Below are positions 6,822-63,789 of a stretch of 64,000 nucleotides of DNA, piece after piece. Each line of letters starts with the position of its first letter. The first letter of the stretch is position 1. Below the pieces are notes generated by a model. That model ran no database searches. It was not told the origin of the DNA and saw only the letters and a program-made list of their open reading frames with translations. The position numbers and the translations under genes are program-made. The stretch is taken from the IMG/VR virus record IMGVR_UViG_3300021255_001403; one strand, given 5' to 3'. The stretch is from an uncultured virus (IMG/VR IMGVR_UViG_3300021255_001403). Taxonomy: Duplodnaviria > Heunggongvirae > Uroviricota > Caudoviricetes.

Positions 6822-7950
6822 ATGGAAGTAGGTGTTAGTAATGAAATAAAGTACCAATCCTTAATATATTCACACAATGAACCATTGTTTCTTAAAACCA
6901 GATGGAGTGAGAACTAGATATTGTATAGGATGGAATGGATACGGAAGATATCTACCAAATACATTGAAGGTAACCTATAATGGGTTACCTTGTAATATTA
7001 GTGAAGAGAGTAATGGAATATTTTATAACTTTGATATAGCACCTAGTGGTAATTATGACGATTATGAAGTTACTTATATTACTAGACCACTTGATTATGC
7101 ATTCAGTACTGGAGACCCATTAGGTGGATATACTGGAGAAGAATACTTCTTATTTCCTAACTGGAATAATACATTAGGTGAAAAAGATGCATTCTGGATA
7201 GGTAAATATCAAGCTGGTGTTAGTACAAATAATATACCACAAAGTAGAAGTGGTGTTAATCTTTGGATCAATATTACTATCGGAGATAGTATAAATGCTA
7301 GTATTTCTAAAGGTACTGGATTCAATATTGTACGTAATCGTCAATGGGTATCTATAGCCTTGTGGTGCGATCATCATAATATAGCTCCTAAAGGAAATAT
7401 GTATGGTAATAATACTGGTAATCTTGATGGAGATTATACATCATTAGCTAGTTGTGGTGGAGGATATCTATCTATTGATGGTAATTATATCGTAACTGGT
7501 GCCAATGTTCCGAATACTTGGAATCATAATGGTCTATCTACTGGTATACATAATATGGTTGGTAATGTATGGGAATTTGTAAATGGCTTAGAAAATAGAA
7601 ATGGTAAGATATATATATTTGATGAAGATAATAGTAATTATGTATATAGTGGAGTAGACGTCGTTGGTGATAATATTGATGGTAAAGCCAATTATATAGT
7701 AGATATTACAAATACAACTCAGGCTATACTCAATGAAGGTATAGCTAATATTGTAAGCACTAATGGTTATATACCAAGTAATTTGTCTAATGGTATTGCT
7801 ATTATTAGAACCGATCAAATCAATCCAGCTCATAGAGGTGTTTCAAGTTATAATTGGGCTAAAAGTAGTTTATGGGATATAAGATTTGAAGGTGGATATA
7901 GTAGAACAGGTCAGTTAATGGGATTTCGTCTCGCAAGAGATTTAATATAG
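6822..7950 (+). CDS. C-type-lectin/FGE-sulfatase-fold (Mtd-like) protein, probable receptor-binding protein; +1 frameshift near 6888-6891 relative to its paralog
   Basis: FWIGKYQA, WNHNG..GIHNMVGNVWEFV, C-terminal GFRL; frame from ATG 6822 reads MEVGVSNEIKYQSLIYSHNEPLFLK and matches the paralog N-terminus, remainder is in the +1 frame (ORF 6877..7950). Confidence 0.75.
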
Positions 7951-7981
7951 ATAAATTTATTTTTATAAGGAGGAACTTATA

Positions 7982-8434
7982 ATGCTTAGTGAATATGAGG
8001 TTAGTGTATTATCAGAAGCAAGAGAGATATTAAATGAATTCGGAAATACTCCTAAAGGACAAAAGTTATTAAGAGGATTAGCTGATAGAATGAAAAGTAG
8101 AGCGGCAGCTTTAGGCTCAAAGCATTCTAAGGGATTTGCTTACGATCAAAGAAATTCTGAATTTAGTAGTTTTTCTAGAGATGCATTAGCAAAAAGATCT
8201 AGTGAAGCTCATAAAAAGCTTGGACTTATAACCCATGTAGATAAAAGTTTGTCTAAGCATACTGGATCTGCTCCAGGAACCTATTCTAATCCCGTTGCTA
8301 ATAAATATAAAGAACACTTAATGCGTAAAAATACTGGTTCGGTAATTGGTGATAAAATAGGTAGCGCTATAAACAAAACTTCTAGTGGAGTTAAGAATGC
8401 TTTTGGTAATATTGCAAGTAAAATCTTAGGATAA
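7982..8434 (+). CDS. Probable head-packaged protein: acidic leader ML.EYEV.VL.EARE..NE plus basic cargo
   Basis: SD AGGAGG; leader shared with 28880..29218. Confidence 0.7.
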   Translation: MLSEYEVSVLSEAREILNEFGNTPKGQKLLRGLADRMKSRAAALGSKHSKGFAYDQRNSEFSSFSRDALAKRSSEAHKKLGLITHVDKSLSKHTGSAPGTYSNPVANKYKEHLMRKNTGSVIGDKIGSAINKTSSGVKNAFGNIASKILG

Positions 8435-8439
8435 ACAAA

Positions 8440-8472
8440 ATATACAGAGAGGGATAAACTCCCTCTCTGTAT
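8440..8472. terminator. Bidirectional terminator between convergent genes
   Basis: TACAGAGAGGGA/TCCCTCTCTGTA inverted repeat. Confidence 0.75.
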
Positions 8473-8478
8473 TTATAT

Positions 8479-9591
8479 TTATATTAAGTCTCTAGAAAGA
8501 CGGAAACCAACATTCCAATTCGAGAGTGACAAAGCATTAGACACACTGAACGCCCATAACCCACATTGAAGACCAAGGTTCGAGCTACCACTACGTAAGA
8601 GAAGATATGTTTGACTATTATTATACCATGCATAATCACTATCTAAATTACTAGGTACATAACCTTGAGTATCAACTGTATTAGCTATACCTTCATTTAA
8701 TATAGCTTCAGAAGTATTAGTTATATCAACTATATTCATATTACTATTGTTACTTACACTAACACCGCTATCGACATAATTCTTATTCTCATCATATATA
8801 TAAATTTCCCCACTTCTATTCTCTAATCCATCTATAATTTCAAATATATTACCAACCATATTATGAATACCATTAGATTTACCATTATGGTTCCATGTAT
8901 CAGGTATAGTAGCACCAGTTACATAATAATATCCATTACCAGCATAATATCCTCCACCACATTGATCTAGTGTTGTATAATCTCCATCAAGATTATTAGT
9001 ATCATTACCATAAATATTACCTTTAACATGTATCTCATGATGATCACACCATCTAACAATAGATACCCATTCTCTATTGGTAATCATATCAAATCCATTA
9101 CCTTTAGACTTACATGCAGTAATAGCATCATTACGAGTTACATAACACCATAAATTAACACCACTTTTAGATTGAGGGATATTAGATCCATTATTCGATG
9201 CCTGATACTTTCCTATCCAAAATCCATCACCTTCTCCTAATGCATTATTCCAGTTAGGAAATAAGAAATATTCTTCATTAGGATATCCACCTAATTCATT
9301 ACCTGTACTAAATGCATAATCTAAAGGTCTTACTGCATAAGTAACTGTATAATCATCATAATTCCCACTAGGAGCTATATCAAAGTTATAGAACAACCCG
9401 TTCTCTTCTTCAGAAATATTACATGGTAACCCATTATAGGTTACCTTTAAAGTTCCAGGTAAGTATCTTCCATAGCCATTCCAACCTATACAATACCTGG
9501 TTCTTACACCATCAGGTTTTAAAAATAATGGTTCGGTTTGTTGATGAATTAGCCAGTATAAATGTATAGTATTTTCTATCTCTACATTCAT
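8479..9591 (-). CDS. C-type-lectin/FGE-sulfatase-fold (Mtd-like) protein with DGR variable-region-like C-terminus
   Basis: FWIGKYQAS, WNHNG..GIHNMVGNIFE, RSGSS...CGLWAFSVSNALSLSNWNVGFRL; paralog of 6822..7950. Confidence 0.8.
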   Translation of the reverse strand: MNVEIENTIHLYWLIHQQTEPLFLKPDGVRTRYCIGWNGYGRYLPGTLKVTYNGLPCNISEEENGLFYNFDIAPSGNYDDYTVTYAVRPLDYAFSTGNELGGYPNEEYFLFPNWNNALGEGDGFWIGKYQASNNGSNIPQSKSGVNLWCYVTRNDAITACKSKGNGFDMITNREWVSIVRWCDHHEIHVKGNIYGNDTNNLDGDYTTLDQCGGGYYAGNGYYYVTGATIPDTWNHNGKSNGIHNMVGNIFEIIDGLENRSGEIYIYDENKNYVDSGVSVSNNSNMNIVDITNTSEAILNEGIANTVDTQGYVPSNLDSDYAWYNNSQTYLLLRSGSSNLGLQCGLWAFSVSNALSLSNWNVGFRLSRDLI

Positions 9592-10974: not shown

Positions 10975-13900
10975 ATGTCGAAATACTATAGAATTACATA
11001 TGATAATATTGGAATATATGAAGCCTTAAAACGTAAAGTAGATTTTGTAGAATGGAGGAATATACTAAATCAATCTACTTGGTTACCTAAACCACCAATG
11101 TATGATGATACTTGTATATCCTATTTTACTGAGAGTGGTTATAAGAAGTTTAATACCAATACAATGCCTATCGTAATTAAATACTTAGATAAAGATAAAA
11201 TCAATATAAAAGAAGTTACAGAATTAATCGGAGATATATTATATCGAGATAAATACCAAGTTGTAGTAAGACAAGTAATAACAAATAAGACAAACGCAAT
11301 TAAAGAGGAGATGGATATATCATCAATAGAAATATTGGATGAATCTTCAAAATCTAAGAATTACAAAAAGAGATATAAGAACCTAGATGATTTCTGTAAA
11401 GATTTTGATACTACAGAAGAAGCCATGGCTTATTATAAGTTTCATAACGTTAAGTGGCCAGAAGGAAAGACAAACGATAGACCTTTTAGTTGGCCTGATG
11501 ATATATTGAAAACGTTTGAAGGTAATTGCTGGGATCATGCCATATTTTTCTACTATTTCTGTAAAAAGAAAAATATTCCAGCCAATATTTATCGTATAGC
11601 CGTATTCGCAGAACCAGCTACAGATAATGATGGTCTTAGATGGTGGTGCATGGGTCATATAGTCAATGTATGTAAATCAGATACCGGATGGTATGTGTGC
11701 GACTATGGAGAAGGACCAGACACTGGGTTATTTGGTCCATTTAGATCAGAGAAAGAAACCATGGAAACATACAAAAAAATATTCTTATCCAGAATCAAAA
11801 TGAATATAAAACAAAAATATTCTACTGGATTCTTTTCTCATGTAACTGATGCATATTATTGTACTAGTGCAGAACAATATAAGGTTTATGATAAGTATTA
11901 TGGAAGACACGATATCTATCAGAGTGATGAAATTTTCTTAAATACTCTAAAATTACCATACGATAATAAAGTTACCAAATATACTTTTATAGATTCAATG
12001 AAGAATACTATAAAGAAAAATTTTGGATTATTGTATGATAAATTAGGTTCTTTATTCGAAGAGAGTAATATAGGAAATGGTGATAATATGATAGTGAATG
12101 AGTCGAGGCTATCTAATAGTATAAATTTATCTAAAGATGATTTTGATGAAAATATGCATTTCATAAAAACTCATGCTAAAACTCCTAAAGATCTTAATAC
12201 TATACTTAATAAATTCGATTATGGATACTTCACTAAAAATGGTACTTATTATGATGAAAACCATGTTGGAGACTTTAGTGATTATACCACAATGGATCCA
12301 CATGACGTTATAAAATTTGCTGTTGGAGTATGTTGGGATTTTACAGAAACCGAAGCATATTTATTTGATAAACTCTTTAATTATAAGATAACTAATAAAG
12401 CACTTAAGAATGGAACCTATTCTCTTTATTATATGGAGCATGATGATTCCAAAGGAATATCTCCTACTCACACTTGGTTAGCTTATATGGAAAATGATAA
12501 GGTATATCTATTCGAATCATCTTGGTTTAAGTATCAAGGTATACATGAATTCAATTCTGAAATGGAAATAATGGAGTTCTACGATAAAGCTCAAAGAGAG
12601 AATGAAGTTAAGAGAGGTAATAAATTACGTGGAGGTATAGTCATTAAGTATCTTCCTGTAAGAAAATATGGATTGAAACCATTAGAGTTTATGACACATA
12701 TTTACAAATGTAATACCTCTAGACTAATGAAAGTATCTCCTGAGTTTCCTATACATTGTAATATTCAACCTATAAAAGAGGATACTGATATGATATTCAA
12801 TGAAGAGTTAGAAAAGGGAAATAATGTGATATTCTCAGAAGATGATATATACTGCAATATGGATAAATGGGATAATCATGAATCCCACGTATTATTCATT
12901 CTGGGATTATCTGCTTCTGGTAAATCTACCTTATCTAGAAAATTAGCTGAAAAATATAAATGTAATCTTATAGAATTAGATGTGATAGCATTTGCGATTA
13001 CTGGTGAAAAAGCACATGATAAGGGAAGACAAACTTGGGAATATATTAAAAAAGCTGACCACATGCTATATAAATTTATGAAAGAAAAAGGATTAGAACC
13101 TGACTTTTTGAGGCATGTGCCATGTAGTAGTCATCAACTACCTGTATTAGATAAGAAAGATGAAAGAGAAAAACAAAAATGGATAGATAAATATATCCAT
13201 TGGGTTTGTTTCGAGCAAAAAGAGAGGTGCGTTTTAGAAGGAGGTCATGCTTGTGTAACTATAGCAAATCATAAAGAATATAGAGAGTTCCCTATTATAT
13301 TCAAGGGTTCATCTTTATTAAAATCTATGATAAGACGAGTTAAAAGAACTTGGATAGATGATAATGAACCTATGGGGCCTATTGAATTAGCCAAATATTT
13401 AGTTATCCTATATAAGCAATATGGTAAAATGTTTCCAGAAGTGAATGCTGCTAGAAATGCTGTAATAACAAAAGATAATTTTAAGATAATAAAAGAATAT
13501 AGAGATCTTGAGGATATTGATATGATCGTTAATGAATCTACTTTTATATCTGATAAAGATTTAGTATGGAATTTTGATAAATGGAAAAGAGGAGATATAA
13601 ATCTCCTGTTTATCTGTGGTTATTCTGGTGGTGGTAAGTCTACTTTATCTAGGATACTAGCTAAGAAATATAACTGTCCTCTTAGTGAAATGGATATGGA
13701 AAATCAAGAAATTAAAAAGACTTATCATAATGAATTATCTCAATATGGTCCTGGTGGTACATTTGGCGATCCTAAGAAGATGGGGTTTATAATTAATAAA
13801 TACATCGAAAGATATGGTAATAAAGAAAGACGTATAATAGAAGGAGTACAATTAGCTTCAGTAGATTTTAGTTTTATAAAAGATTATGCAGTTATATTCA

Positions 13901-15753
13901 AAGGAACCTCGGCTGTAACAGCATCTATGAGAGCTTGGAAAAGAGCATTTACTGATGATGAGAATGCTGAAAGATGGGCAGAAGATAAATCTACTTTAGG
14001 AAAATTAAAATATAAACTTCAACAAGGTCCTAATAGATTGAAGACTAATATCAATAAAGTAGGACCATTTATGGAAAAGTTCTATGCTGATATGAAGAAA
14101 GCTGGAGCTAAAGAAATGGAGTATGAGGATATCGTAAATCCTAATACAGAAGATTTTCATATTCCTCTTCTTATTAGTGGAGATGATGTATACGTTAATT
14201 TTGATAAATGGAAAGAAGGAAAGTGTAATACTCTTTTCATTCTTGGATTATCAGGTTCTGGTAAATCTACTCTTGGTAAGAAATTAGCTAAAGCTAGAAA
14301 AGCGTTCTATGTAGAAACTGATAAGATAAGAGGAAACTCTCATTACTCTGATGAAGAGATGAGAAAAGATCATCCTCTTATTTTAAGATGGTTTGAATCT
14401 CAGTATGATAAAGATAGGAGAGGGTTTAATAGTCTAGATAAGTCTATTCGTAAAAAAGAATGGGATAGATGTGTAGAATGGATGATTAATCAAAAAGAAC
14501 CTAAAGTAATAGAAGGTGCTATAGAAGAGTTCTTATTAGAGCATCCAGAATACTCTGAATATCCTATAGTGTTTAAGAATACCAGTATGCTTAAATCTAT
14601 AGTAAGAATGACTCGTAGACAATTATTCGAAGTCGATAAAAATAAGGTAGATGATTATAATACTCAATTCTTAAAATGGTGGTTAAAACATATTCAAAAG
14701 TATAATGATATGAGAAAGAGGAATAACAACGTGAGAGATACTATTATCGGTAAGAAAGAGAATAGTTATGAAGTAATGAAAGAGTCTAGAACTCTTAAAG
14801 ATGATGATGTGTATTTCATAAAATGCAAATGGGAAGATGGAGATAAATCTGGTTATACTGTAAATGCTTGTAAAAATATTAATGGAGAAGTTTATAGAGT
14901 ACGTACTGAGATGCTGGTAATTAAAGATGGTAAAGTATTATGCGTTAAAGATTACCATGATAATCTTGGTTTAGGATATAAACTTCCTGGAGGTTCTGTA
15001 GAAAAAGGTGTATCTTATGCAGAGCAAGCAGCAGAAGAAGTTAAAGAAGAAGCTCGTATTATTATAAATCCCAAATCTATTCTAGATACTGGTATTACTT
15101 ATATTCGTAAGTATACTAAACAACCTAGATGGGTATCGCATTTAACTCCTCCTATTCCTTATGTAGGTGGTATATCTTATGTATACGTGGGAGAGTATAA
15201 ATCAGATTTTAATGGAGATATACCAGATGTGCATAGAGATGATGGATTTTATAAACGTGCTAGATTCTATGATATTGATGAGATTAATTGGATACCAGAG
15301 CATAAGAAAGCATTAGATATGTATCTTGAAAAGAATATGCAAAAACAAGATCAATCTAAAGATACCTATGAAAATGCTCTTAAGATATTTAACTCTCTTA
15401 CTCCTCAAGAGCAGTATTGGATGGATGATAGATATGTAGATTCTCCTCATACATTCTATCGTAAAGTGCACTTTATTGGTAGAAAACCTGTTGGGTTTGT
15501 AGATACCTATAGATTCCATCCTAATGATCCTGGTGTGATTATAGTATTAGCAGTTAATAAATCTTATAGAGGTAAAGGTATTGCTAGTGATTTAGTAAAA
15601 TCTGCTACTCTTTATTGTAAATCTAAAGGTATTAAGAAGATTATATGGAGAGCCCATAAAGATAACTATGCTTCTATACAGTTAGCTAAGAAACTAGGAT
15701 ATACTAAGACTAATGAAAACGAGAAAAGTTATAGATTTGAAAAAACTCTATAG
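10975..15753 (+). CDS. Polyvalent protein: N-terminal unknown domain, 2 transglutaminase/papain-like domains, 3 P-loop kinase-like domains, NUDIX hydrolase, GNAT acetyltransferase
   Basis: GNCWDHA..GH..D and GVCWDF..THTW..E triads; Walker A GLSASGKST, GYSGGGKST, GLSGSGKST; Nudix box PGGSVEKGVSYAEQAAEEVKEEA; GNAT LAVNKSYRGKGIA..NYASIQLAKKLGY; late-type promoter AACA-N6-TA at 10933. Confidence 0.85.
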   Translation: MSKYYRITYDNIGIYEALKRKVDFVEWRNILNQSTWLPKPPMYDDTCISYFTESGYKKFNTNTMPIVIKYLDKDKINIKEVTELIGDILYRDKYQVVVRQVITNKTNAIKEEMDISSIEILDESSKSKNYKKRYKNLDDFCKDFDTTEEAMAYYKFHNVKWPEGKTNDRPFSWPDDILKTFEGNCWDHAIFFYYFCKKKNIPANIYRIAVFAEPATDNDGLRWWCMGHIVNVCKSDTGWYVCDYGEGPDTGLFGPFRSEKETMETYKKIFLSRIKMNIKQKYSTGFFSHVTDAYYCTSAEQYKVYDKYYGRHDIYQSDEIFLNTLKLPYDNKVTKYTFIDSMKNTIKKNFGLLYDKLGSLFEESNIGNGDNMIVNESRLSNSINLSKDDFDENMHFIKTHAKTPKDLNTILNKFDYGYFTKNGTYYDENHVGDFSDYTTMDPHDVIKFAVGVCWDFTETEAYLFDKLFNYKITNKALKNGTYSLYYMEHDDSKGISPTHTWLAYMENDKVYLFESSWFKYQGIHEFNSEMEIMEFYDKAQRENEVKRGNKLRGGIVIKYLPVRKYGLKPLEFMTHIYKCNTSRLMKVSPEFPIHCNIQPIKEDTDMIFNEELEKGNNVIFSEDDIYCNMDKWDNHESHVLFILGLSASGKSTLSRKLAEKYKCNLIELDVIAFAITGEKAHDKGRQTWEYIKKADHMLYKFMKEKGLEPDFLRHVPCSSHQLPVLDKKDEREKQKWIDKYIHWVCFEQKERCVLEGGHACVTIANHKEYREFPIIFKGSSLLKSMIRRVKRTWIDDNEPMGPIELAKYLVILYKQYGKMFPEVNAARNAVITKDNFKIIKEYRDLEDIDMIVNESTFISDKDLVWNFDKWKRGDINLLFICGYSGGGKSTLSRILAKKYNCPLSEMDMENQEIKKTYHNELSQYGPGGTFGDPKKMGFIINKYIERYGNKERRIIEGVQLASVDFSFIKDYAVIFKGTSAVTASMRAWKRAFTDDENAERWAEDKSTLGKLKYKLQQGPNRLKTNINKVGPFMEKFYADMKKAGAKEMEYEDIVNPNTEDFHIPLLISGDDVYVNFDKWKEGKCNTLFILGLSGSGKSTLGKKLAKARKAFYVETDKIRGNSHYSDEEMRKDHPLILRWFESQYDKDRRGFNSLDKSIRKKEWDRCVEWMINQKEPKVIEGAIEEFLLEHPEYSEYPIVFKNTSMLKSIVRMTRRQLFEVDKNKVDDYNTQFLKWWLKHIQKYNDMRKRNNNVRDTIIGKKENSYEVMKESRTLKDDDVYFIKCKWEDGDKSGYTVNACKNINGEVYRVRTEMLVIKDGKVLCVKDYHDNLGLGYKLPGGSVEKGVSYAEQAAEEVKEEARIIINPKSILDTGITYIRKYTKQPRWVSHLTPPIPYVGGISYVYVGEYKSDFNGDIPDVHRDDGFYKRARFYDIDEINWIPEHKKALDMYLEKNMQKQDQSKDTYENALKIFNSLTPQEQYWMDDRYVDSPHTFYRKVHFIGRKPVGFVDTYRFHPNDPGVIIVLAVNKSYRGKGIASDLVKSATLYCKSKGIKKIIWRAHKDNYASIQLAKKLGYTKTNENEKSYRFEKTL

Positions 15754-29629: not shown

Positions 29630-29739
29630 GCTTTTTAAACTTATTTTTGATTATATATTATATTAGTGAATAAGAGTAAATAATACTCTTATAAAAGAAT
29701 TTCATTTAGTCTTTTTTTAAAGAAAAGGAGAGGATAACT

Positions 29740-33451: not shown

Positions 33452-33470
33452 TTATATATTATAATAGTGA
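33452..33470 (+). promoter_or_regulatory. Early-type promoter TTATATATTATA-ATA-GTGA
   Basis: Recurrent motif. Confidence 0.7.
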
Positions 33471-33545: not shown

Positions 33546-33920
33546 ATGTTGTACATCGCTAATGCATTTTCCTTTAACATGTTCGAAAATGTACCTGAGG
33601 TTCTGGTACAGAGAGAGCTGGACGTCGATGGAGTAAAAGAACTTTTGAGACATGAGTTGGCTTTCGAATCGGTTGTAGGCCATGCTGACACTGCGTCTAT
33701 TTTAACAAACATGTTGGATACCGAAATCAAATTCAATCGGGTCTCCAATAACTTCGGTTACGGAGACCAGATTTTGGTGGCCCAGTACATTGGTCCGAGA
33801 CTCCCTGAAGGAGCCGTTTCCCTCCCAGAGGGAAGCAAGATAAAGTTCATTCTCGTAACTCCGAAACGGAAGGATGATATCGGCTGCTGGCATTGCGGTC
33901 CGACTACCATACTCTGGTAA
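33546..33920 (+). CDS. acrIII-1: DUF1874 / STIV B116-like protein = AcrIII-1 family viral ring nuclease (anti type III CRISPR)
   Basis: LYIANAFSFNM, SVVGHADTA (catalytic GH), NRV, GDQILVAQYIGPRLPEG, all hallmark DUF1874 motifs. Confidence 0.85.
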   Translation: MLYIANAFSFNMFENVPEVLVQRELDVDGVKELLRHELAFESVVGHADTASILTNMLDTEIKFNRVSNNFGYGDQILVAQYIGPRLPEGAVSLPEGSKIKFILVTPKRKDDIGCWHCGPTTILW

Positions 33921-33976: not shown

Positions 33977-34029
33977 GTTATTAAATCCACTTTAAATTAT
34001 ATATTATAATAGTGAAAGGAGAGATAGAT

Positions 34030-35519: not shown

Positions 35520-36617
35520 ATGAAAACTTATAATTGTCCTTATTGTAATAAAAAGCTTATTAGAGATAAGCTTGTTAAGCATATAGAGAAAGAGCATGAT
35601 TATGAACTTCCATTAGATTATACAGCATATCGTTTGGTATATGATATTGTAAATAATAAACAAGGCCATGGTTCTTGCCAAATATGTGGTAAAGATACAC
35701 AATGGAATGAGAAACGTCAGAAATATAACCGTCTTTGTGGAGATCCTAAATGCTATGAAGAAGTAAAACGTATACACCATGAACGTATGTTAAGGGTATA
35801 CAATAAAGTACATCTTTTAGATGATCCTAAACAACAAGAAAAAATGCTAGCACATAGAAGAATAGCAGGAGAATATAAGTGGAGTGATGGTACTAAGTTT
35901 ACTTATATGGGGTCGTTTGAGAAGAATCTCTTAAAGTTTATGGATAAAACTTTAGAGTTTAAATCTAATGAGATTATTGCTCCTGGTCCTACATTGGAAT
36001 ATGTATTCCAAGGAAAGACTCATCATTGGATAACAGACTTTTTAATCATTCCCTATAATCTTATCATAGAAGTAAAAGATGGTGGGGATAATCCTAATAA
36101 GAGAGAAATGCCTATATATAGAGCAAAGCAGATAGAAAAAGAAAAGATGATTACTAATCAAGGTACTTATAATTATCTTAGACTAACTAATAACAACTTT
36201 GCTCAGTTATTAGGTGTATTAGCAGAATTGAAGATGAACGTGGTGGATGAAGTGGAAAATAAAATATATCGTATAAATGAAGATGCAAATAAGTCTATAG
36301 TAGGCCATGTAATGATGCATGAATCCAATGCCCTATTAGGAACTGTATTATCTGGTTTAATATTAGAAACCTCTACTATATATAAAATAAAAGATGGCAG
36401 AATTATAGACGATCCTGATGGAGAAGAAGTGTTAGAAGCATATATAATCAAACCACATCTTAAGAATAAACATTATGAAAATAAATTTGTAGATTCAGTG
36501 CAGAAGACTAAAGACTTAGTAAAGAAGTGCCATATGGTAGAGTATTGTACTTTCTTTAATGCTAATCCTGAGAATATAATGGATGGGGTCATAATAGGTG
36601 TAAAAACATCTCTATAA
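35520..36617 (+). CDS. Zinc finger plus TnsA/T4 gp4-like PD-(D/E)XK endonuclease (possible head-completion nuclease)
   Basis: CPYC...H...H, CQIC, YMGSFEK, HHWITDF...IIEVK; late-type promoter at 35491. Confidence 0.65.
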   Translation: MKTYNCPYCNKKLIRDKLVKHIEKEHDYELPLDYTAYRLVYDIVNNKQGHGSCQICGKDTQWNEKRQKYNRLCGDPKCYEEVKRIHHERMLRVYNKVHLLDDPKQQEKMLAHRRIAGEYKWSDGTKFTYMGSFEKNLLKFMDKTLEFKSNEIIAPGPTLEYVFQGKTHHWITDFLIIPYNLIIEVKDGGDNPNKREMPIYRAKQIEKEKMITNQGTYNYLRLTNNNFAQLLGVLAELKMNVVDEVENKIYRINEDANKSIVGHVMMHESNALLGTVLSGLILETSTIYKIKDGRIIDDPDGEEVLEAYIIKPHLKNKHYENKFVDSVQKTKDLVKKCHMVEYCTFFNANPENIMDGVIIGVKTSL

Positions 36618-37499: not shown

Positions 37500-39938
37500 A
37501 TGTTAGATTATCATTTTAATATAAGTGGTAAAGTATTATTGAATGGTAAAACTGTTGATATAAGACCAGAGAATATAACTGACCTTATTCGTATATACGA
37601 TTTTAATAACAGATTAATGCCTATGAATCTTATACGTTTATCACTTGATAAAAACACTTTAGATGAAATTTATAAGAATGCTAAGACTTGTACTATACAA
37701 CTTCGTATAGGTAAATTTGGTAAAGATAAAAATAAAACTACAACAGCTTATCCAGCTGATGCTACTTATATAGATGCTGAGTATAGTGTAGTAGTAGGTA
37801 GTGATATAAATTATAATAAAGAACTAGATGAAATAGCTAATTCAGGTTCTGGTATACCTATGAGAGATAAACTTAAAGAAACTTATCTAGGATTGGTTAG
37901 TAAAGATTGTATAGATGCTAATAAGATAGTAGAAAACTCTAATATATTAACTACTACTATGCAAAATATAGTATTATCATCTCTTAAACATACACATCTT
38001 TTAATAGAACCTTTTGATTATAATGATATTGAAGACCAGTTGATTATTCCTCCTAATGATACTTGTGCATCATTAATAAAGTACTTAAATTCTGTGAAAG
38101 TTTTCTATGATACGAAATATATGCTATTCTTTGATGAACCTAATGTAACTTATCTCTTATCTAGAAGTGGTAGAGGTGTACCAATGATAGGAGAAGATTT
38201 TAATGATGTAATATTCCAGATACGTCCTATAACTGATAGTAAGTCTATGAATATAGGAATGGAAAAGAATTGGCAGCAACAGGCATATGTAGCAGATATT
38301 TCTGTAATGGATTCCGTATATAATATAGACCATGATACTGCTAAAGTAATAAATAATATAGAGACTATAATAGCACCATCATTTGATAACTCCCCATTCC
38401 AATTAGAAGAAGTAAGGAAAATGCAAACTGAAATTAATAATGTAGTTAATTCATTTGCTAGTCAGATAGGAAAGTATGATAAAGCTGTAGGCAATATATC
38501 AGAACGTATAAATAGTGCTATGGATGGTATTACCGAACAGATTAATGGTGTATTAAAACCTCTTACTAATTTCCAAAATGACTTAATTGGTGCGGCTATG
38601 AGGCAAGCAGGAGCTATACCTACATCTGTAGGTGTAGAAGTTACAGATGAACTTACTGTAAATATAGATATTATAGGAAGTGGTATTAAATCTGCAGCTA
38701 ATACTGTTATGAAATCTGCATTTAGTGGAGCATTTGACGGATTAAATATAGGATTGAATGCTAGAGAACTAATGTCTCAGAATGCTATGAATTTCGCTCC
38801 AGATATGTATAAACTACACTTCTTAGATAATAAGACTAGTTGTTGCTCGTTTATTAATTGTAGTGAAGTAATGAATAAGACTGTTAAGAATATGGGAGGA
38901 TTAACTAGTGGATTCTCTAATATGCTTAGTGGATTTACGTCTCAAATTAATAATACATTAAGCTCATTCTCTAGTGTAGTAAGTAATGTATCTTCTATAG
39001 TAAACCAAGGCCAAAATCTTCATCAAATGCTAGAAATGGTAAGATCTAATCCCTATTATGGTTTATTACAAGACCAATATGGTGATGTAGATGATACTAT
39101 GACTATGATGAGTACTAATATAGCTAAAATGGGTCAGGCATTATCTATGTCGAGCGCTGCTATATCTACATGTAATAGTTATATGAATAAGTATACTGAA
39201 GCTGTAAATGATTTACAGAAGTTTGCTAAAATGGCTACATCTTTCTCTGGTGGATTAAACTCTGCTGGTAAGATAGATGTAAAATCTAAATTCATGTCTA
39301 CTTATGACTCTACTCGCATATTTGGTTCTTCTGGTACTAGTATATCTAATGATATGGGAGCATTATCTAATCTTATAGCTCAATCTATTACTAGTATTAA
39401 AGGATTAAAGAATATAAACCTTGCTAGCTTTGGTACTAAATCTAAATCAGGTAGACTTACATATTCAGATTTACTTACTTTATCCTCTAATATATTCTCC
39501 AAAGATATACGTAATATAGGCCAATTAGGTATATCTAAGTTTACAGTAGATCTTAATGTAGGCGGAGGTATAATGGGTAAAAATAAAGCTGTAGGTACTC
39601 TTATACTCAAAACTCGTAATGATAATCCTAATGAAGTAAAGAATGCTAAATCTGAATTAGAATTAAGAGTAAATCAGTTATGTATAAATAAATTCGGTTT
39701 AGACCCCTCAGTATTTACTCCTAATAAACGATATACGATAAAAAATTATAATGGTCATGGAGAAAAGAATGGTCAATTCTTATTGAATACTAAGATTGAG
39801 ATATATACTAGAGAGGATAATACATTTATCTGCAATACTCAATTATATTTCAATAAGATACCTGAGTCTATTAAGTATAGTACAAGTGCTACTAATATAA
39901 GTACACCCACTACAAATACTGCTAATTCAAAAAAATAA
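37500..39938 (+). CDS. Probable baseplate hub/tail protein with long inserted helical region
   Basis: Late-type promoter at 37465; hub-like N-terminus and C-terminal FTPNKRY...GQFLL; central S/N/M-rich helical segment; tentative. Confidence 0.45.
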   Translation: MLDYHFNISGKVLLNGKTVDIRPENITDLIRIYDFNNRLMPMNLIRLSLDKNTLDEIYKNAKTCTIQLRIGKFGKDKNKTTTAYPADATYIDAEYSVVVGSDINYNKELDEIANSGSGIPMRDKLKETYLGLVSKDCIDANKIVENSNILTTTMQNIVLSSLKHTHLLIEPFDYNDIEDQLIIPPNDTCASLIKYLNSVKVFYDTKYMLFFDEPNVTYLLSRSGRGVPMIGEDFNDVIFQIRPITDSKSMNIGMEKNWQQQAYVADISVMDSVYNIDHDTAKVINNIETIIAPSFDNSPFQLEEVRKMQTEINNVVNSFASQIGKYDKAVGNISERINSAMDGITEQINGVLKPLTNFQNDLIGAAMRQAGAIPTSVGVEVTDELTVNIDIIGSGIKSAANTVMKSAFSGAFDGLNIGLNARELMSQNAMNFAPDMYKLHFLDNKTSCCSFINCSEVMNKTVKNMGGLTSGFSNMLSGFTSQINNTLSSFSSVVSNVSSIVNQGQNLHQMLEMVRSNPYYGLLQDQYGDVDDTMTMMSTNIAKMGQALSMSSAAISTCNSYMNKYTEAVNDLQKFAKMATSFSGGLNSAGKIDVKSKFMSTYDSTRIFGSSGTSISNDMGALSNLIAQSITSIKGLKNINLASFGTKSKSGRLTYSDLLTLSSNIFSKDIRNIGQLGISKFTVDLNVGGGIMGKNKAVGTLILKTRNDNPNEVKNAKSELELRVNQLCINKFGLDPSVFTPNKRYTIKNYNGHGEKNGQFLLNTKIEIYTREDNTFICNTQLYFNKIPESIKYSTSATNISTPTTNTANSKK

Positions 39939-39945
39939 AAAATAA

Positions 39946-39977
39946 CTCCCCTCTAGACTTTACGTCTAGAGGGGAAC
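39946..39977. terminator. Bidirectional terminator
   Basis: TCCCCTCTAGAC/GTCTAGAGGGGA. Confidence 0.8.
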
Positions 39978-40077
39978 TTTTAGTTAAAACCATTTATTTA
40001 CTTTAGGAGGCAAACCCAATACAATATAGCGTAAACTACTTCTCACTAGTAATTATTTTTAAACCCTATATCATATT
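39946..40077 (-). ncRNA. Putative late sRNA with CCUCCU anti-SD motif
   Basis: Promoter AACA-TTAAAG-TA (40088-40077) and terminator with no ORF between. Confidence 0.4.
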
Positions 40078-40090
40078 ACTTTAATGTTTC

Positions 40091-40128
40091 AAAAAAAAAT
40101 AAACCTGAGATATTAATCTCAGGTTATT
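40091..40128 (-). terminator. Terminator closing the minus-strand sRNA array
   Basis: AACCTGAGAT/ATCTCAGGTT stem, A9 on plus = U9 tail on minus. Confidence 0.7.
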
Positions 40129-40157
40129 TAAAAAGAATTGTGATAATAATTATGAGC

Positions 40158-40306
40158 TTAATAATGGTATGAAACTTTTATGCCCAAACATCAAAGGAGA
40201 AGTTCATATATAACACCACAATATTATGAACGGAGATAACCACCATGAGTATGCTTGCTATGGACTCGACCAAACCATAACAAACGATGTTTCATACCAT
40301 TGTTAA
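40158..40306 (-). ncRNA. Panhandle sRNA unit 1
   Basis: 18-bp terminal inverted repeat (40158-40175/40289-40306, 1 mismatch), internal hairpin, two UCUCC motifs. Confidence 0.55.
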
Positions 40307-40318
40307 ACTAATAATAAA

Positions 40319-40424
40319 TATAATAATACTATGAATGAATCGAGCCATAATGACACCGCTATGTATGCAAGCCAAGGAGATGATTTACTTACACAAAAGA
40401 AGATCCATTCATAGTATTATTATA
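40319..40424 (-). ncRNA. Panhandle sRNA unit 2
   Basis: 23-bp inverted repeat (40319-40341/40402-40424; single G-U on minus); AUCAUCUCCUU in loop. Confidence 0.55.
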
Positions 40425-40439
40425 ATTACTATAATAATA

Positions 40440-40612
40440 TAATAAGATACATAAGCAATGTGGAATCCAATCCATTAAGCAAGATCATAGTTTGTCCGTC
40501 CATTCACTTACCATCTGGAAATTGTATGTGTATTTTCAATACTCTTTAAATATTTAGCGTTCTTTTAATTCTTCGCTATAAGAATAGAGGTTTGTACTTA
40601 TGTATCTTATTA
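40440..40612 (-). ncRNA. Panhandle sRNA unit 3
   Basis: Perfect 16-bp inverted repeat (40440-40455/40597-40612); early-type promoter 40630-40612 abuts it. Confidence 0.55.
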
Positions 40613-40636
40613 CACTATTATAGTATATAACTAAAA

Positions 40637-40761
40637 ATAAGTTTAGTATAGCTAGGTTTTGAAAGGAGAACTTAAAACCAATATTACCCTTACCCAACTA
40701 ATAATATTGGAGTTTGTGTGTGTAGTGAAATTGTATTTATGCCCTAGCTATACTAACTTAT
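40637..40761 (-). ncRNA. Panhandle sRNA unit 4
   Basis: 14-bp perfect core (40643-40656/40743-40756) extendable with a bulge; late-type promoter AACA-ATATGA-TA places +1 at 40759; UUCUCCUUUC in loop. Confidence 0.55.
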
Positions 40762-40855
40762 CATATTGTTATACGTGTTGTAATTTTTTAATTTTCGCAA
40801 TGATAAACTAAGATATTCTAATTATATATTATAGTAGTGAAAGGAGGCGATTAAG

Positions 40856-40954
40856 ATGGGTGATATCGTTATGGGTATCGTAATCATCTTTGCTGTATAT
40901 GCAACCTGGATGATGATAGGCTACAGATTAGAAGAATCAGAACGCAACCAGTAA
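40856..40954 (+). CDS. 32-aa early single-TM peptide MGDIVMGIVIIFAVYATWMMIGYRLEESERNQ
   Basis: Early-type promoter 40822-40840; SD AAGGAGG. Confidence 0.65.
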   Translation: MGDIVMGIVIIFAVYATWMMIGYRLEESERNQ

Positions 40955-40985
40955 TCACATTTAAAAAAAGAAAGGAGGTGATTAC

Positions 40986-41105
40986 ATGGTAACCATCGAA
41001 CAGGTTAATGGAGGTTTCAAGATTCACTGGCTTAATATGACCAGTGGAGTTATGAGTGCTAAGAGCCTTATGGAGTTACTGAACTCCTATCACTACAACA
41101 AATAA
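40986..41105 (+). CDS. 39-aa early peptide MVTIEQVNGGFKIHWLNMTSGVMSAKSLMELLNSYHYNK
   Basis: SD AAGGAGGTGA; terminator 41103-41140. Confidence 0.65.
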   Translation: MVTIEQVNGGFKIHWLNMTSGVMSAKSLMELLNSYHYNK

Positions 41106-41140
41106 AAAAGATGGGGATATTGACTCCCCATCTTTTTTTG

Positions 41141-42277
41141 TTATATTTTACTTAAATCTATTGGATTTGTTGTACCAAAGTATGTATTCACTATATCATA
41201 TAATGCTTGAGGATCATTCAGATCTTTTAAGAAGATAGACTCTATTGATTCTGGTAATTCTCTATAGAGTTTTAATTGGTATGCTATATCTATAGCACAA
41301 TACCTACTAGCAATTTCTTCTTTAGTAATGAATACATTCTTTTTTGCTGTATCCACTATAGCATTATAGATAGACTCTGGTGTTACTACCATCTGTGTAT
41401 TCTTAATATAACTCAGTATCTTTATTGCTTGGGAATAGTTGAATAAACCTTTTACATCTCTGCATTGTAATCCGGTTAATATCATAAATGGACTAACCCA
41501 AGACTGAGGTATATCAAAAGTATCGTTATTAGTAGTATCTTTCTTTTTAGTTCTAAGTATATAAGCAAATAAAGCATTATTATAATTAAAACTAAAAGAT
41601 GTATCTTCTAATACACTAAGCTCTTTATTTACTGTAGACTTCTTGAAGAATACTTTAGTATTAGGAAGAATAGTCGGTAATTGGAAAGAATATTCTGAGC
41701 AAGTTATAAATATACTTGGGATATCTAAACCATTTCTAGTGAATTTATCTATTAAATCAGCAGCTATTACTGTAGGTTCTACTGTACCTAATTTAAGATA
41801 AACTCCTGGTATATATGGAAATAAAGTCTTCATTAGTTCTATATTATGATCTATAACAGACTTTATTGGAGAACTATTTATAAGACTTATATTCTTATTA
41901 TTATATCCAGATATGAACCTATAGGAATTAGAACTGTCATTAGAAGAGTATATGACGAATATATTACTCTTTATACCACACTTCTTAAAGAAATTCCTAT
42001 AATGTAAAGGCATATTTACCATAGTAGCTAATACACCAAAAGGGTCTACGATATCATTAAACTTGTATAGAGGCATTATTAGTTGTGAGAAATCTATAAA
42101 TACATTCACCTCAGTAATAGGATTGGGGAATTCTAAGCTACAAAGCTTATTAAGCTGAATATATTTTATAAATCTCCCATATAACTTTGCTTCTGATATA
42201 CTATTAAATGCACTATTACTAAAAGTTTCATCATGCATTCTTTTATTAGCATTGCTCAATTGATGTGATTGTATCAA
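41141..42277 (-). CDS. Conserved-looking jumbo-phage protein, possibly PIN/FEN (T4 RNase H)-like fold
   Basis: VNVFIDF, HYRNFF, VEPTVIA, ILTG..VKG; tentative. Confidence 0.45.
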   Translation of the reverse strand: MIQSHQLSNANKRMHDETFSNSAFNSISEAKLYGRFIKYIQLNKLCSLEFPNPITEVNVFIDFSQLIMPLYKFNDIVDPFGVLATMVNMPLHYRNFFKKCGIKSNIFVIYSSNDSSNSYRFISGYNNKNISLINSSPIKSVIDHNIELMKTLFPYIPGVYLKLGTVEPTVIAADLIDKFTRNGLDIPSIFITCSEYSFQLPTILPNTKVFFKKSTVNKELSVLEDTSFSFNYNNALFAYILRTKKKDTTNNDTFDIPQSWVSPFMILTGLQCRDVKGLFNYSQAIKILSYIKNTQMVVTPESIYNAIVDTAKKNVFITKEEIASRYCAIDIAYQLKLYRELPESIESIFLKDLNDPQALYDIVNTYFGTTNPIDLSKI

Positions 42278-46119: not shown

Positions 46120-46326
46120 GAAAAAATAGACCTCCTTTATAAATATATTTATAACTGATAATGAATCTCTCCAAAGAGAGATTCACTACATTATTATAGT
46201 ATATATTTATATATCACTTTATAAGATTCCTATATATTACATATACTACCATATCTATAGTATATAATTAAACAAAAATATAGAGAGTAGCCATTTAATA
46301 TGGCTACTCTATTGTTTATATGAATT

Positions 46327-54825: not shown

Positions 54826-56568
54826 ATGGAAATCTTTGAAGAAGCTGCAGATAAAAAAGAAAAGCATCTACGAATATCTCCGTTAAATACAGAGCAATTT
54901 ATTAAAGTAAATGAATTGTTAGAAATAGATGACCCTATATTCTTTGCTAGATCTAATATGCCTACAGAAAGAGGTTTATTATCTAACGAAATATTTGGTA
55001 TTACTAAAGAAGATAGAACTACGATATTTGCTTATATACATTTAGCCGGAGAAACTTTTATGCATCCATTAGCATATAAGATCTGGAGTAAATTAGATTC
55101 CAATATCCCATCTTGTATTGCTGAGTTAGATACCTATAAAGTAGATAAAGAAACAGGTAAACTTATACCAGATCCTAATGGAGAGAATGGTATAAAGTTT
55201 TTACAAAAAGTAATAAAGACTATTAACTTTAAAACCAATAAATCTGCTAAGAGATTAGTTAAGACTACATTTCTAGAAAAATATAGAGATAAATTGTTTA
55301 TAGATGACTTTGTAGTTATACCAGCAGGATATCGAGACGTAGATACAGAAATTGGTGGTAGAATTGGTGTTGGTGAAATAAATAAAATGTACGATGCTAT
55401 CATCAGAGATTGTAAAGCATTAAAAGAATCTGATGATTATGGATTATCATTAAATGGATCATTAAGATTACGTATACAAAAAGGAATAGTATCTGTATAC
55501 GATTTCTTATGCTTTGGTAGAGATACTAAAGGTGTAGATTCCCAAGCATCAGGCTTATCAAGAAAATTAGGTCTTATTAGACGAGCTGGTATGAAGAAGT
55601 CTTTCGACTGGGGTGCTCGTCTAGTTATCTGTACTCAGAATCTAAGAAAAGAGAATTTATCTGATATACTCATAGACTTAGACTCTATTGGTTTACCATT
55701 AGCGGCTATATGTGCTAACTATTATCCTTATATGATATTCTGGATAAGAACTTGGTTTGAAAATAATCTTACTGATAAAGAAGATATACTTGTAGTAGAC
55801 CCTAAAAAGAAAACTGCTGTTAAAGGTGAATTACAAGACTGGAGAGAATACTATTCTGATGAAAGAATCAAACAAGAGTTAGATAGATTCCTTCATGGTT
55901 CTTCTACTCGTCTTAATGCTATAGAAGCTCCTGTATCTGATGAATATAAACGTAAGAATACTAAAGCATATCTTATGTTTAAGGGTTATATGGTTCCAGA
56001 TGAAGCTGTAGCTAAGCAGTATGAAAAACAAGACTCTCCTATAGCTGATGAAGAATATATGAAATTCTCTATACAAGAAAGACCACTTACTTGGTGTGAT
56101 CTATTTTATAGAGCTGCTATGGATGTAACTAAAGATAGAACGGTATTAGTATCTCGTTTCCCTATTGATAGTTACTATAACCAGTATCCAGCTAAAGTTA
56201 AAGTAGTATCTACTAATGAAACTGAACCAATGATAGTAAATGGTACTTTCTTCAAATTATATCCCAAGATAAGAATAGAGGATATAAACCAAGATACTTC
56301 AAATAAGTTCGTAGATGTAGCATTACCTAATAACGTACGTCTTGATTCTATTGGTGGTGACTTTGATGGTGATACTGTATCATCTAAAGCAGTTTATTCT
56401 ATAGAATCTAATGATGAGTTATTAAATGCTATCAATTCTAAAAAACATTATATCTCTCTCGGTGGTGAGAATATAATGTATACGTCTAAAGAATGTATCC
56501 AATCATTATATAATCTCACTCTTGTATTACCTGACGATAAACCCAAGCTTACTGAAGCAAAATTTTAG
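54826..56568 (+). CDS. Phage multisubunit RNA polymerase beta-prime subunit (N-terminal plus catalytic part), probably virion RNAP
   Basis: ERGLLSNEIFG, FAYIHL..HP, VIPAGYRD, SRFP, catalytic GGDFDGD; late-type promoter at 54780 and IFEE leader suggest packaging. Confidence 0.9.
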   Translation: MEIFEEAADKKEKHLRISPLNTEQFIKVNELLEIDDPIFFARSNMPTERGLLSNEIFGITKEDRTTIFAYIHLAGETFMHPLAYKIWSKLDSNIPSCIAELDTYKVDKETGKLIPDPNGENGIKFLQKVIKTINFKTNKSAKRLVKTTFLEKYRDKLFIDDFVVIPAGYRDVDTEIGGRIGVGEINKMYDAIIRDCKALKESDDYGLSLNGSLRLRIQKGIVSVYDFLCFGRDTKGVDSQASGLSRKLGLIRRAGMKKSFDWGARLVICTQNLRKENLSDILIDLDSIGLPLAAICANYYPYMIFWIRTWFENNLTDKEDILVVDPKKKTAVKGELQDWREYYSDERIKQELDRFLHGSSTRLNAIEAPVSDEYKRKNTKAYLMFKGYMVPDEAVAKQYEKQDSPIADEEYMKFSIQERPLTWCDLFYRAAMDVTKDRTVLVSRFPIDSYYNQYPAKVKVVSTNETEPMIVNGTFFKLYPKIRIEDINQDTSNKFVDVALPNNVRLDSIGGDFDGDTVSSKAVYSIESNDELLNAINSKKHYISLGGENIMYTSKECIQSLYNLTLVLPDDKPKLTEAKF

Positions 56569-63718: not shown

Positions 63719-63789
63719 CATATGGGATAGGCGAAATGCCTATCCCTAATTTTGATTATATACTATAAAAATGAAAGGAAGATATTAAT

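Follow-up and report, generated by a model that had tools for sequence, protein, structure and literature searches.

What is a long intergenic stretch, tiled with inverted repeats and essentially free of open reading frames (ORFs), doing in the genome of a jumbo phage? In an attempt to answer this question, we analyzed positions 39946-40770 of a 64,000-nucleotide (nt) sequence from an uncultured virus (IMG/VR record IMGVR_UViG_3300021255_001403); "the window" denotes that whole stretch. The window belongs to an uncultured jumbo phage that is a distant relative of the AR9-type jumbo phages, and its RNA-polymerase subunit (54826-56568; PHROG 2986) is 26-31% identical to split beta/beta' subunits in 221 jumbo-phage records, the top matches being to Listeria LPJP1, Staphylococcus S6-like and Bacillus AR9/PBS1-like phages. 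Positions 39939-41140 are the sole gap of at least 350 nt in the window that lacks an ORF of at least 70 amino acids, and no ORF within 39939-40855 exceeds 50 amino acids, in agreement with a preliminary description of the locus that had been made from the sequence alone. We found that the region is a real, lineage-specific structured non-coding locus and very probably an RNA gene read from the minus strand. Given such a gene, it is plausible, if somewhat short of probable, that its RNA acts by pairing with Shine-Dalgarno (SD) sequences, that is, as an anti-SD RNA.

The preliminary description had seen tandem units, each closed by a long inverted repeat. Our scan recovered these repeats, which tile 40134-40773 back to back and are the four longest among the 12 inverted-repeat pairs of the window (arms of at least 20 nt, no more than 300 nt apart):

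40134-40175 / 40289-40330: inverted repeat of unit 1, 42-nt arms, 81% complementary
40311-40341 / 40402-40432: inverted repeat of unit 2, 31-nt arms, 90% complementary
40427-40455 / 40597-40625: inverted repeat of unit 3, 29-nt arms, 93% complementary
40626-40656 / 40743-40773: inverted repeat of unit 4, 31-nt arms, 74% complementary

The units had also been called unrelated, which does not hold for units 1 and 2: because their stems are alike (a direct repeat of 37 nt at 73%, with cross-pairing over 15 nt at 87%), duplication of a hairpin module is suggested. When a 706-nt stretch of the array was folded, the minus strand reached -197.5 kcal/mol (z -8.2) and the plus strand -165.8 kcal/mol (z -7.2), and on neither strand was any of 20 shuffles as low. 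The minus strand folded better than the plus strand by 24-33 kcal/mol in all three sequences compared, namely the window and its close relatives L017 and L018. Folding unit by unit, a check that the preliminary description had proposed, gave minus-strand structures that beat 100 of 100 shuffles in each case (z -3.1, -4.8, -8.4, -4.5 and -4.0 for units 4, 3, 2, 1 and 0, unit 0 being a further segment outside the four repeats), and the minus strand was never less stable than the plus strand; the energies were, for example, -39.0 versus -24.7 for unit 2 and -40.6 versus -29.5 for unit 0. The closing helices of units 4, 3, 2 and 1 comprise 20, 30, 21-23 and 25 pairs, respectively, which corresponds to the near-perfect double-stranded RNA of about 20 bp or more expected of an RNase III precursor. 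The predicted domains, in the order of their coordinates, are as follows:

39936-40077, minus strand: unit 0, a predicted RNA of about 140 nt running from a late-type promoter to a bidirectional terminator, with GCCUCCUA in a predicted hairpin loop
40149-40315, minus strand: unit 1, the 3'-most domain, with a closing helix of 40289-40315 with 40149-40175 (about 25 pairs, two bulges) and a 113-nt interior that has UAUCUCCG and CUUCUCCUUUG in predicted loops
40319-40424, minus strand: unit 2, with a 23-bp closing helix and a 60-nt interior that has AUCAUCUCCUU in the predicted apical loop
40428-40624, minus strand: unit 3, with a closing helix of 30-31 bp, 19 bp of which lie inside the early transcript starting at 40613
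40626-40773, minus strand: unit 4, upstream of the early promoter, with a conserved helix core of 40743-40761 with 40637-40656 and an 86-nt interior in which UUCUCCUUUC is predicted to be unpaired

We then considered the sequence motifs by which such an RNA could be made and ended:

40613-40645, minus strand: AR9-like early promoter, TATATACTATAATAGTG, with a conserved upstream part and +1 at the G in position 40613
40759-40770, minus strand: late-type motif whose +1, at 40759, opens the paired part of the unit-4 core helix; L018 retains both motif and spacing
40077-40088, minus strand: late-type motif with +1 at 40077, just past the U9 tail of the next-listed terminator and with a T-run upstream; identical in L018
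40091-40125, minus strand: intrinsic, minus-specific terminator with a 10-bp stem and a 4-nt loop (together 40125-40102) and a U9 tail; 94% identical in L018
39944-39978, both strands: bidirectional terminator that ends the 812-residue flanking gene (plus) and the predicted unit-0 RNA (minus; stem followed by AUUUUUUAUU); 81% identical in L018 versus 54% for shuffles
41104-41138, both strands: bidirectional terminator marking the right-hand end of the insertion; 94% identical in L018

The early-promoter motif first came to notice as a short repeat, through additional metagenome contigs that matched only 40608-40652. Its 17-nt form in the window, TATATAYTATANWANTG, fits the early consensus published for AR9, AAATATATATTAT-(6N)-G+1, in the text available of the AR9 transcriptome paper (PMC5312081). 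Its sequence has the features of an AR9-type early transcription unit, with an A/T-rich element, a G+1 six nt downstream and repetition ahead of early genes. A motif scan located the copies on the plus strand at 29652-29668, 33453-33469, 33998-34014, 40823-40839 and 63757-63773 and on the minus strand at 46189-46205 and 40613-40629, and a related complete 266-kb phage (G001) has 16 copies, compared with none for the reversed pattern. When the distinct copies from the window, the related loci and G001 were pooled, 28 of 31 were followed within 240 nt by an SD sequence and an ORF of at least 25 codons in the same orientation. The three copies without an ORF are orthologous and belong to the array locus, one each in the window, L017 and L018; in G001, every one of the 16 early promoters precedes an ORF, and an ORF-less counterpart was not found in that genome. 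In three of the seven window copies, and in several copies in relatives, +1 lies one base before the ribosome-binding site, so that the mRNA would begin with GAAAGGAG/GAAAGGAA and near-leaderless 5' untranslated regions (UTRs) are predicted.

An early-type promoter adjoining the unit-3 stem had been claimed in the preliminary description; the promoter copy found there has its predicted +1 at 40613, where the pairing of the unit-3 closing helix begins. Likewise, the U9-tailed terminator said to close the array was recovered by our terminator scan at 40125-40091; it is the only minus-strand-specific terminator of the region and lies about 520 nt past the early promoter. From these two signals we predict a non-coding RNA of about 523 nt comprising units 3, 2 and 1. 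The G+C-rich hairpin and U-run on the minus strand are those expected of a small RNA gene bounded by an intrinsic terminator, and 5 terminator-like sites were found in 39000-42000 when 0.7 were expected. The AR9 late motif is AACA-N6-TA (PMC5312081, text available), and copies are present on the minus strand at both 40759, which had been pointed out as such, and 40077. In this window the density of the motif is 0.91 in intergenic versus 0.14 in coding DNA per kb-strand (6.5-fold), and five copies sit 18-47 nt before plus-strand genes. Because AACA-N6-TA carries little information, late starts at 40759 and 40077 are only plausible. On the plus strand, GC skew over 39900-40650 has the negative sign that the minus-strand genes of this phage show, and sigma-70-type promoters are not enriched (17 versus 20.5 expected). 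The preliminary description had envisaged a battery of small RNAs; the minus-strand signals agree with it, but the layout favors one multi-domain transcript of about 523 nt (or about 670 nt) plus one RNA of about 140 nt over five separate small RNAs.

Near-identical phage DNA is present in sheep, goat and bovine gut metagenome runs; the host is probably a Firmicute of low G+C content living in the ruminant gut. All four metagenome runs examined (from four studies) have contigs bridging 39000-40794. The close relatives L017 and L018 come from metagenome contigs, and their versions of the 812-residue protein are 96% and 93% identical to that of the window, respectively. Strains close to the window have array indels of 1, 2 and 5 nt. 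The more diverged L018 gave the following identities to the window:

Arms: 83-92%, shuffles 61-64%
Early promoter plus unit-3 right arm: 92%, shuffles 64%
Two terminators: 94%, shuffles 50-60%
Fourfold-degenerate sites of the flanking gene: 75%
Unit 1 interior: 60%, shuffles 60%
Unit 2 interior: 56%, shuffles 52%
Unit 4 interior: 57%, shuffles 57%
Unit 3 interior: 72%, shuffles 58%

The unit-3 interior has a core at about 40486-40581 that is conserved in L018, including a hairpin with one compensatory change, and the unit-4 interiors of the window and L018 share a 15-nt block at permuted positions. The interiors had no other significant similarity or complementarity across the window or the 34 loci compared. 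In the minus-strand alignment, 98% of the cells of the 98 closing-helix pairs are paired, versus 30-47% when the partner columns are slid by 1-3 positions. While 85 of the 98 pairs are invariant, five changed on both sides (three from A-U to G-C, one from G-C to U-G and one from A-U to U-G), a number reached by 1 of 500 shuffles, and in two more a single-sided change gave G-U, where the plus strand would have an A-C mismatch. By helix, unit 1 has 24 of 25 pairs invariant and one changed on both sides, unit 2 has two A-U to G-C compensatory pairs, unit 3 has 29 of 30 pairs invariant, and unit 4 has one pair changed on both sides and the two one-sided changes to G-U. Thus, in the three sequences, pairs are kept by compensatory change, as expected of a structured RNA under selection, and the test of stem conservation and covariation that the preliminary description had called for came out in favor of the stems. 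We regard the covariation evidence as consistent but modest. The combination of conserved stems with exchangeable interiors is, in our view, the most unusual and least explained feature of the locus.

The flanking genes encode proteins of 812 (plus strand) and 378 amino acids (minus strand), are convergent, and are likewise neighbors in related IMG/VR phages. They are separated by 1202 nt in the window, versus about 160-260 nt in five of the six loci that have the same pair. The sixth, L005, has a different 1.9-kb insertion instead of the array; it spans 7352-9200 and includes an ORF of 202 amino acids for a membrane protein, an ORF of 114 amino acids and two tandem terminator-plus-early-promoter modules on the plus strand driving small ORFs. 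The array is absent from all 16 IMG/VR relative loci, which were recovered by an alignment-based protein scan, single-protein scans having found no relative. Exact DNA-pattern searches for close relatives gave no match in IMG/VR (five patterns, some spanning variable positions) or in the genome collection (two patterns), and the GenBank phage collection had no DNA match for the array region and no protein match for either flanking gene. Given the short gap in most convergent loci and the other insertion in L005, the RNA locus and two adjacent micro-ORFs form one lineage-specific accessory insertion of about 1.2 kb between two bidirectional terminators, and accessory modules seem prone to insert at the convergent-gene junction. 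The divergent part of the module is as follows:

40823-40839, plus strand: early-promoter copy driving the divergent micro-ORF transcript, with the +1 G one base before the ribosome-binding site
40856-40954, plus strand: micro-ORF 1, 32 amino acids with a hydrophobic stretch and then a charged tail, very strong SD; variable or replaced between strains
40986-41105, plus strand: micro-ORF 2, 39 amino acids, very strong SD

In three of four metagenome strains, 40794-40954, including micro-ORF 1, is replaced by 104, 150 or 91 other nucleotides. The L017 micro-ORFs are 82-83% identical to those of the window, and the adjoining RNA locus is 94-100% identical.

What might the RNA do? The CU-rich anti-SD motifs listed in the preliminary description are all present, and their frequency is far above that of shuffled sequence in two strains. 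On the minus strand of the window region CTCC occurs six times versus 0.82 expected from 1000 dinucleotide shuffles, none of which reaches six; GGAG occurs once on that strand versus 1.2 expected, and is absent from it in L018. In L018, CTCCT is found four times, once each in units 0 and 1 and twice in unit 4, versus 0.47 expected, a count that none of 1000 shuffles reaches, despite interiors that cannot be aligned. Five of the six CUCC motifs fall in loops or unpaired stretches of the predicted fold of the window, where an anti-SD sequence would be exposed. The 8-mer GAAAGGAG, the complement of the unit-4 motif, occurs at eight other sites in the window; several are ribosome-binding sites, and at two the 8-mer forms the very start of a predicted early mRNA. 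An RNA acting by anti-SD pairing would thus be expected to act broadly.

We favor, tentatively and as somewhat less than probable when taken as a whole, a model in which an early- and late-promoted minus-strand panhandle RNA, cut by RNase III or protected at its ends, lowers translation through anti-SD loops; we infer transcription itself, any processing and the anti-SD action. The injected virion RNA polymerase would start at 40613, read units 3, 2 and 1 and halt near 40091, giving the RNA of about 523 nt. Later in infection, the AACA-N6-TA promoters would add unit 4 (start at 40759, with read-through to about 670 nt) and the separate unit-0 RNA of about 140 nt. A near-perfect A/U-rich helix of 19-31 bp would close each domain and either protect its ends or be cleaved by host RNase III to free the interior. 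Through the CUCC(U) motifs that they expose, the interiors would base-pair with the ribosome-binding sites of host and/or phage mRNAs and reduce their translation. The closing helices would serve as a conserved scaffold, with interiors exchangeable between strains.

Several observations weigh against this model. With respect to the mode of action, L018 units 2 and 3 retain only UCCUU-type motifs and not CUCC. Pairing of the loops with initiation regions of the phage had also been proposed, and this was not supported: seven motif segments tested against 80 initiation regions of the window gave best energies of -14.8 to -24.2, not beyond shuffled queries (mean best about -18, minimum -24). The phage itself is SD-reliant, with GGAG upstream of 45 of 80 genes, which would make its own mRNAs targets of a general anti-SD RNA as well. 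Moreover, antisense regulators are expected to have conserved seed loops and freer stems, and the array shows the opposite. With respect to the promoter, the seven copies of the 17-nt motif in the window compare with 0.02 expected, for a pattern derived from those same seven sites. The AR9 core at up to one mismatch recovers five of the seven and is not enriched (9 versus 5.7 expected). The copy at 40613 is two positions off the AR9 consensus, and the AR9 virion polymerase tolerates little promoter deviation, according to the text available of the transcriptome paper (PMC5312081). With respect to structure, the minus strand is G-richer, which by itself favors folding. The complementarity of the unit-3 helix runs 11-12 nt upstream of the predicted early start, which the early transcript alone leaves unexplained. 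The covariation comes from three sequences that are effectively two lineages, with the structure derived from one of the three. Finally, the 20 sequencing runs listed with phage DNA, which come from 8 studies, include none recorded as RNA, and no transcript was seen.

A different job for the same minus-strand RNA, which we consider unlikely, is that of a protein decoy or sponge, in which the helices titrate RNase III or an RNA-sensing defense protein, or the CU-rich loops or the unit-3 core bind an RNA-binding protein. Such a role would account for the parts that are conserved, which are the helices and the unit-3 core and not the remaining loops, and would be compatible with the finding that no specific mRNA target stands out; the hairpin modules are apparently duplicated, as in known multi-hairpin sponge RNAs. 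However, no protein partner could be identified, Rfam gave no sponge or 6S match, and the CUCC enrichment in non-homologous loops is equally well explained by RNA-RNA pairing.

The exchange of interiors has a more specific reading, in which the locus is a modular RNA cassette array: one transcript would carry payloads of 60-140 nt with anti-SD cores in conserved stalks, which would act as a scaffold for processing or protection, and payloads would be swapped or rearranged between strains to retarget mRNAs specific to host or phage. We offer this as speculation that is a little less likely still. If true, retargeting could silence host translation or neutralize host abortive-infection toxins, and the locus would amount to an operon of several small RNAs that is programmable, for which no description in phages is known.

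The micro-ORFs suggest instead a module resembling a type I toxin-antitoxin system, with the RNA as the antisense controller of the divergent micro-ORFs at 40856 and 40986 through pairing with their SD and start regions. RNA and micro-ORFs lie in the same insertion of about 1.2 kb with its two bidirectional terminators and divergent early promoters. When the whole RNA was paired with the 80 initiation regions, the micro-ORFs ranked first and second (-28.5 and -28.0; median -20.1). In addition, 40227-40246 in the unit-1 interior, read on the plus strand, resembles a diverged copy of a ribosome-binding site with its ATG, and the antisense of this segment pairs with micro-ORF 2 over both its SD and its AUG. 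Rank 3 follows closely, however, at -26.6, and the ranking is confounded by SD strength, with which the energies correlate (r 0.57) and which is greatest in the micro-ORFs. The cognate pairings in L018 (-30.9 and -21.7) fall within the shuffled range (shuffled means -25.9 and -24.0). The idea that loops co-vary with micro-ORF leaders between the window and L018 is unsupported. The four micro-ORF peptides matched no known toxin family and no Pfam family at E<=10 except for two sub-threshold matches to domains of unknown function (DUF), and known antitoxin RNAs are several-fold shorter than this RNA. Taken together, we judge this arrangement improbable.

It is also conceivable, with slightly lower probability, that the repeats act as DNA, in the form of cruciforms or hairpins of a replication origin, for which the early transcript might serve as primer, a hot spot of recombination that swaps cassettes, or remnants of small mobile elements bearing terminal inverted repeats. 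A/T-rich and dense in inverted repeats, the region lies at the junction that has a different insertion in L005, and its interiors are exchanged between strains with the arms unchanged. Contigs of run X3 lose their match at the inner arm ends of units 1 and 4 (40173/40291 and 40655/40744), joints that may reflect replaced interiors, deletions or assembly effects. On the other hand, the repeats are enclosed on one strand between a promoter and terminators, and the one-sided changes preserve G-U only in a minus-strand RNA. No reverse transcriptase, transposase, integrase or replication initiator domain was found in the 75 ORFs of the window, and further copies of the arms were absent from the window, the 34 loci and exact searches of IMG/VR and genome collections.

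Transcription of the opposite strand appears very improbable. The preliminary description had named plus-strand micro-ORFs behind AGGAG sites as a counter-reading; a 30S decoy or sites for GGA-motif proteins would be variants of it. GGAG is enriched on the plus strand, being the same six sites as CTCC, which read there as AGGAG boxes, and the plus strand also folds well. Yet at none of the six is a conserved start codon suitably spaced, and the lone candidate, an ATG at 40244 opening 11 codons, is frame-shifted in L017. No plus-strand early-promoter copy lies within 39946-40770, the upstream gene ends in a strong terminator, and the plus strand is the less stable one in all three strains. A retron-like RNA, with a1/a2 repeats around a reverse-transcription template, had been another suggestion and can practically be dismissed, as the likeness is a superficial one of layout (terminal inverted repeats around a structured interior), with no reverse-transcriptase domain in the 75 window ORFs and no Rfam retron match.

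Tests for membership in known classes gave the following results. None of 4227 Rfam models matched the window at the gathering score; at E<=5 there were only sub-threshold matches centered on terminators in the window and L018, and 6S RNA was not matched in either even at that level. ARAGORN found no tRNA or tmRNA gene in the 64 kb. A miniature inverted-repeat transposable element was rejected for lack of further arm copies in the window, the loci and the collections searched by exact pattern, and of a transposase domain in the 75 ORFs. A CRISPR array or a solitary-repeat RNA anti-CRISPR was rejected because the repeats are inverted pairs, each different, the 37-nt repeat at 73% being the sole long direct one. 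A CsrB/RsmZ-type sponge, which had been raised as a CsrA-binding alternative on the plus strand, was rejected because GGAG lies on a strand without a promoter copy and because the only PrrB/RsmZ match (E 4.6) is outside the region.

By analogy, the locus would work most like two groups of RNAs, although it is a member of neither by any test. S. aureus RNAIII and RoxS/RsaE are multi-hairpin RNAs of Firmicutes in which C/U-rich loops pair with Shine-Dalgarno regions. The array resembles them in its length of several hundred nt, its many hairpins, its repeated pyrimidine anti-SD loop motifs and RNase III as a plausible partner. It differs from them in having no sequence or Rfam relation and in being a phage-encoded tandem of long-stemmed panhandles, with conserved stems and swapped interiors, the reverse of the usual pattern. 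RNase III stalks are the long helices that bracket 16S and 23S rRNA, and RNase III sites also occur in phage T7 early RNA. As in these, several payloads per transcript would each be closed by a long flanking helix; unlike in these, the payloads are non-coding interiors of 60-140 nt rather than rRNAs or mRNAs, and cleavage of the array is a prediction. Divergent type I toxin-antitoxin pairs such as tisB/istR-1, in which the antitoxin pairs in trans with the toxin leader, share with the locus a small hydrophobic peptide gene next to a divergent non-coding RNA in one accessory module and an imperfect complementarity of about 18 bp to a ribosome-binding region. In our case, however, no toxin family is matched, the complementarity is not clearly above controls, and the RNA is far larger and multi-domain.

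Among giant phages, the text available of one report describes 11 small RNAs in Pseudomonas phage 201phi2-1, one of them conserved with phiKZ, which are shorter than 250 nt and mostly derived from 5' UTRs (PMC11512511). They resemble the RNA predicted for the array in that both belong to giant phages, are non-coding and are delimited by a promoter with a terminator close by. They come from unrelated phages, and no tandem panhandle array or anti-SD motif is described for them in that text (PMC11512511). The promoters of our locus fall into the same two classes as those of AR9, one early, A/T-rich and followed after six nt by G+1, and the other of the form AACA-N6-TA, but the early consensus of the clade is TTATATAYTATA and that of AR9 is ATATATATTAT (PMC5312081, text available). 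The word "noncoding" is absent from the main text of the AR9 transcriptome paper, so that no such RNA is reported there under that term (PMC5312081). The words "jumbo" and "giant" do not occur in the text available of a 2025 review of phage small RNAs (PMC12197685), and a literature search limited to such partial texts found no tandem panhandle array.

Other observations were made in the window. On the plus strand, 10975-15753 encodes a protein of 1592 amino acids in which at least three P-loop kinase/AAA-type domains are fused to a NUDIX hydrolase domain and, at the C-terminus, to a GNAT acetyltransferase domain, which is unusual in a phage protein. An endonuclease-annotated protein (35520-36617, plus strand; PHROG 15137) has a zinc-finger match at its N-terminus; it shares 54-69% identity with its copies in relatives, versus 28-45% for neighboring genes, and may be encoded by a mobile gene of the homing type. 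A protein with a STIV B116-like domain (33546-33917, plus strand; PF08960, E 8e-12) is encoded downstream of an early-promoter copy. At 40305-40340, high-depth contigs of other organisms in run X2 match the A/T-rich arm with four differences in 36 nt, which is probably low-complexity similarity and not a shared element.

Few non-coding RNAs have been charted in virulent and giant phages, and the locus described here is a specific candidate, open to experiment, for an RNA with which AR9-like phages could take over the host or regulate themselves. A simple recipe for finding similar loci also follows from it, in which a clade promoter without an ORF behind it is sought together with tandem long-range helices. 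If the interiors are retargetable guides, the design would be relevant to RNA regulation and to phage-host arms races; if they are not, the locus would still be a well-delimited new structured RNA in one lineage of uncultured phages of the ruminant gut.

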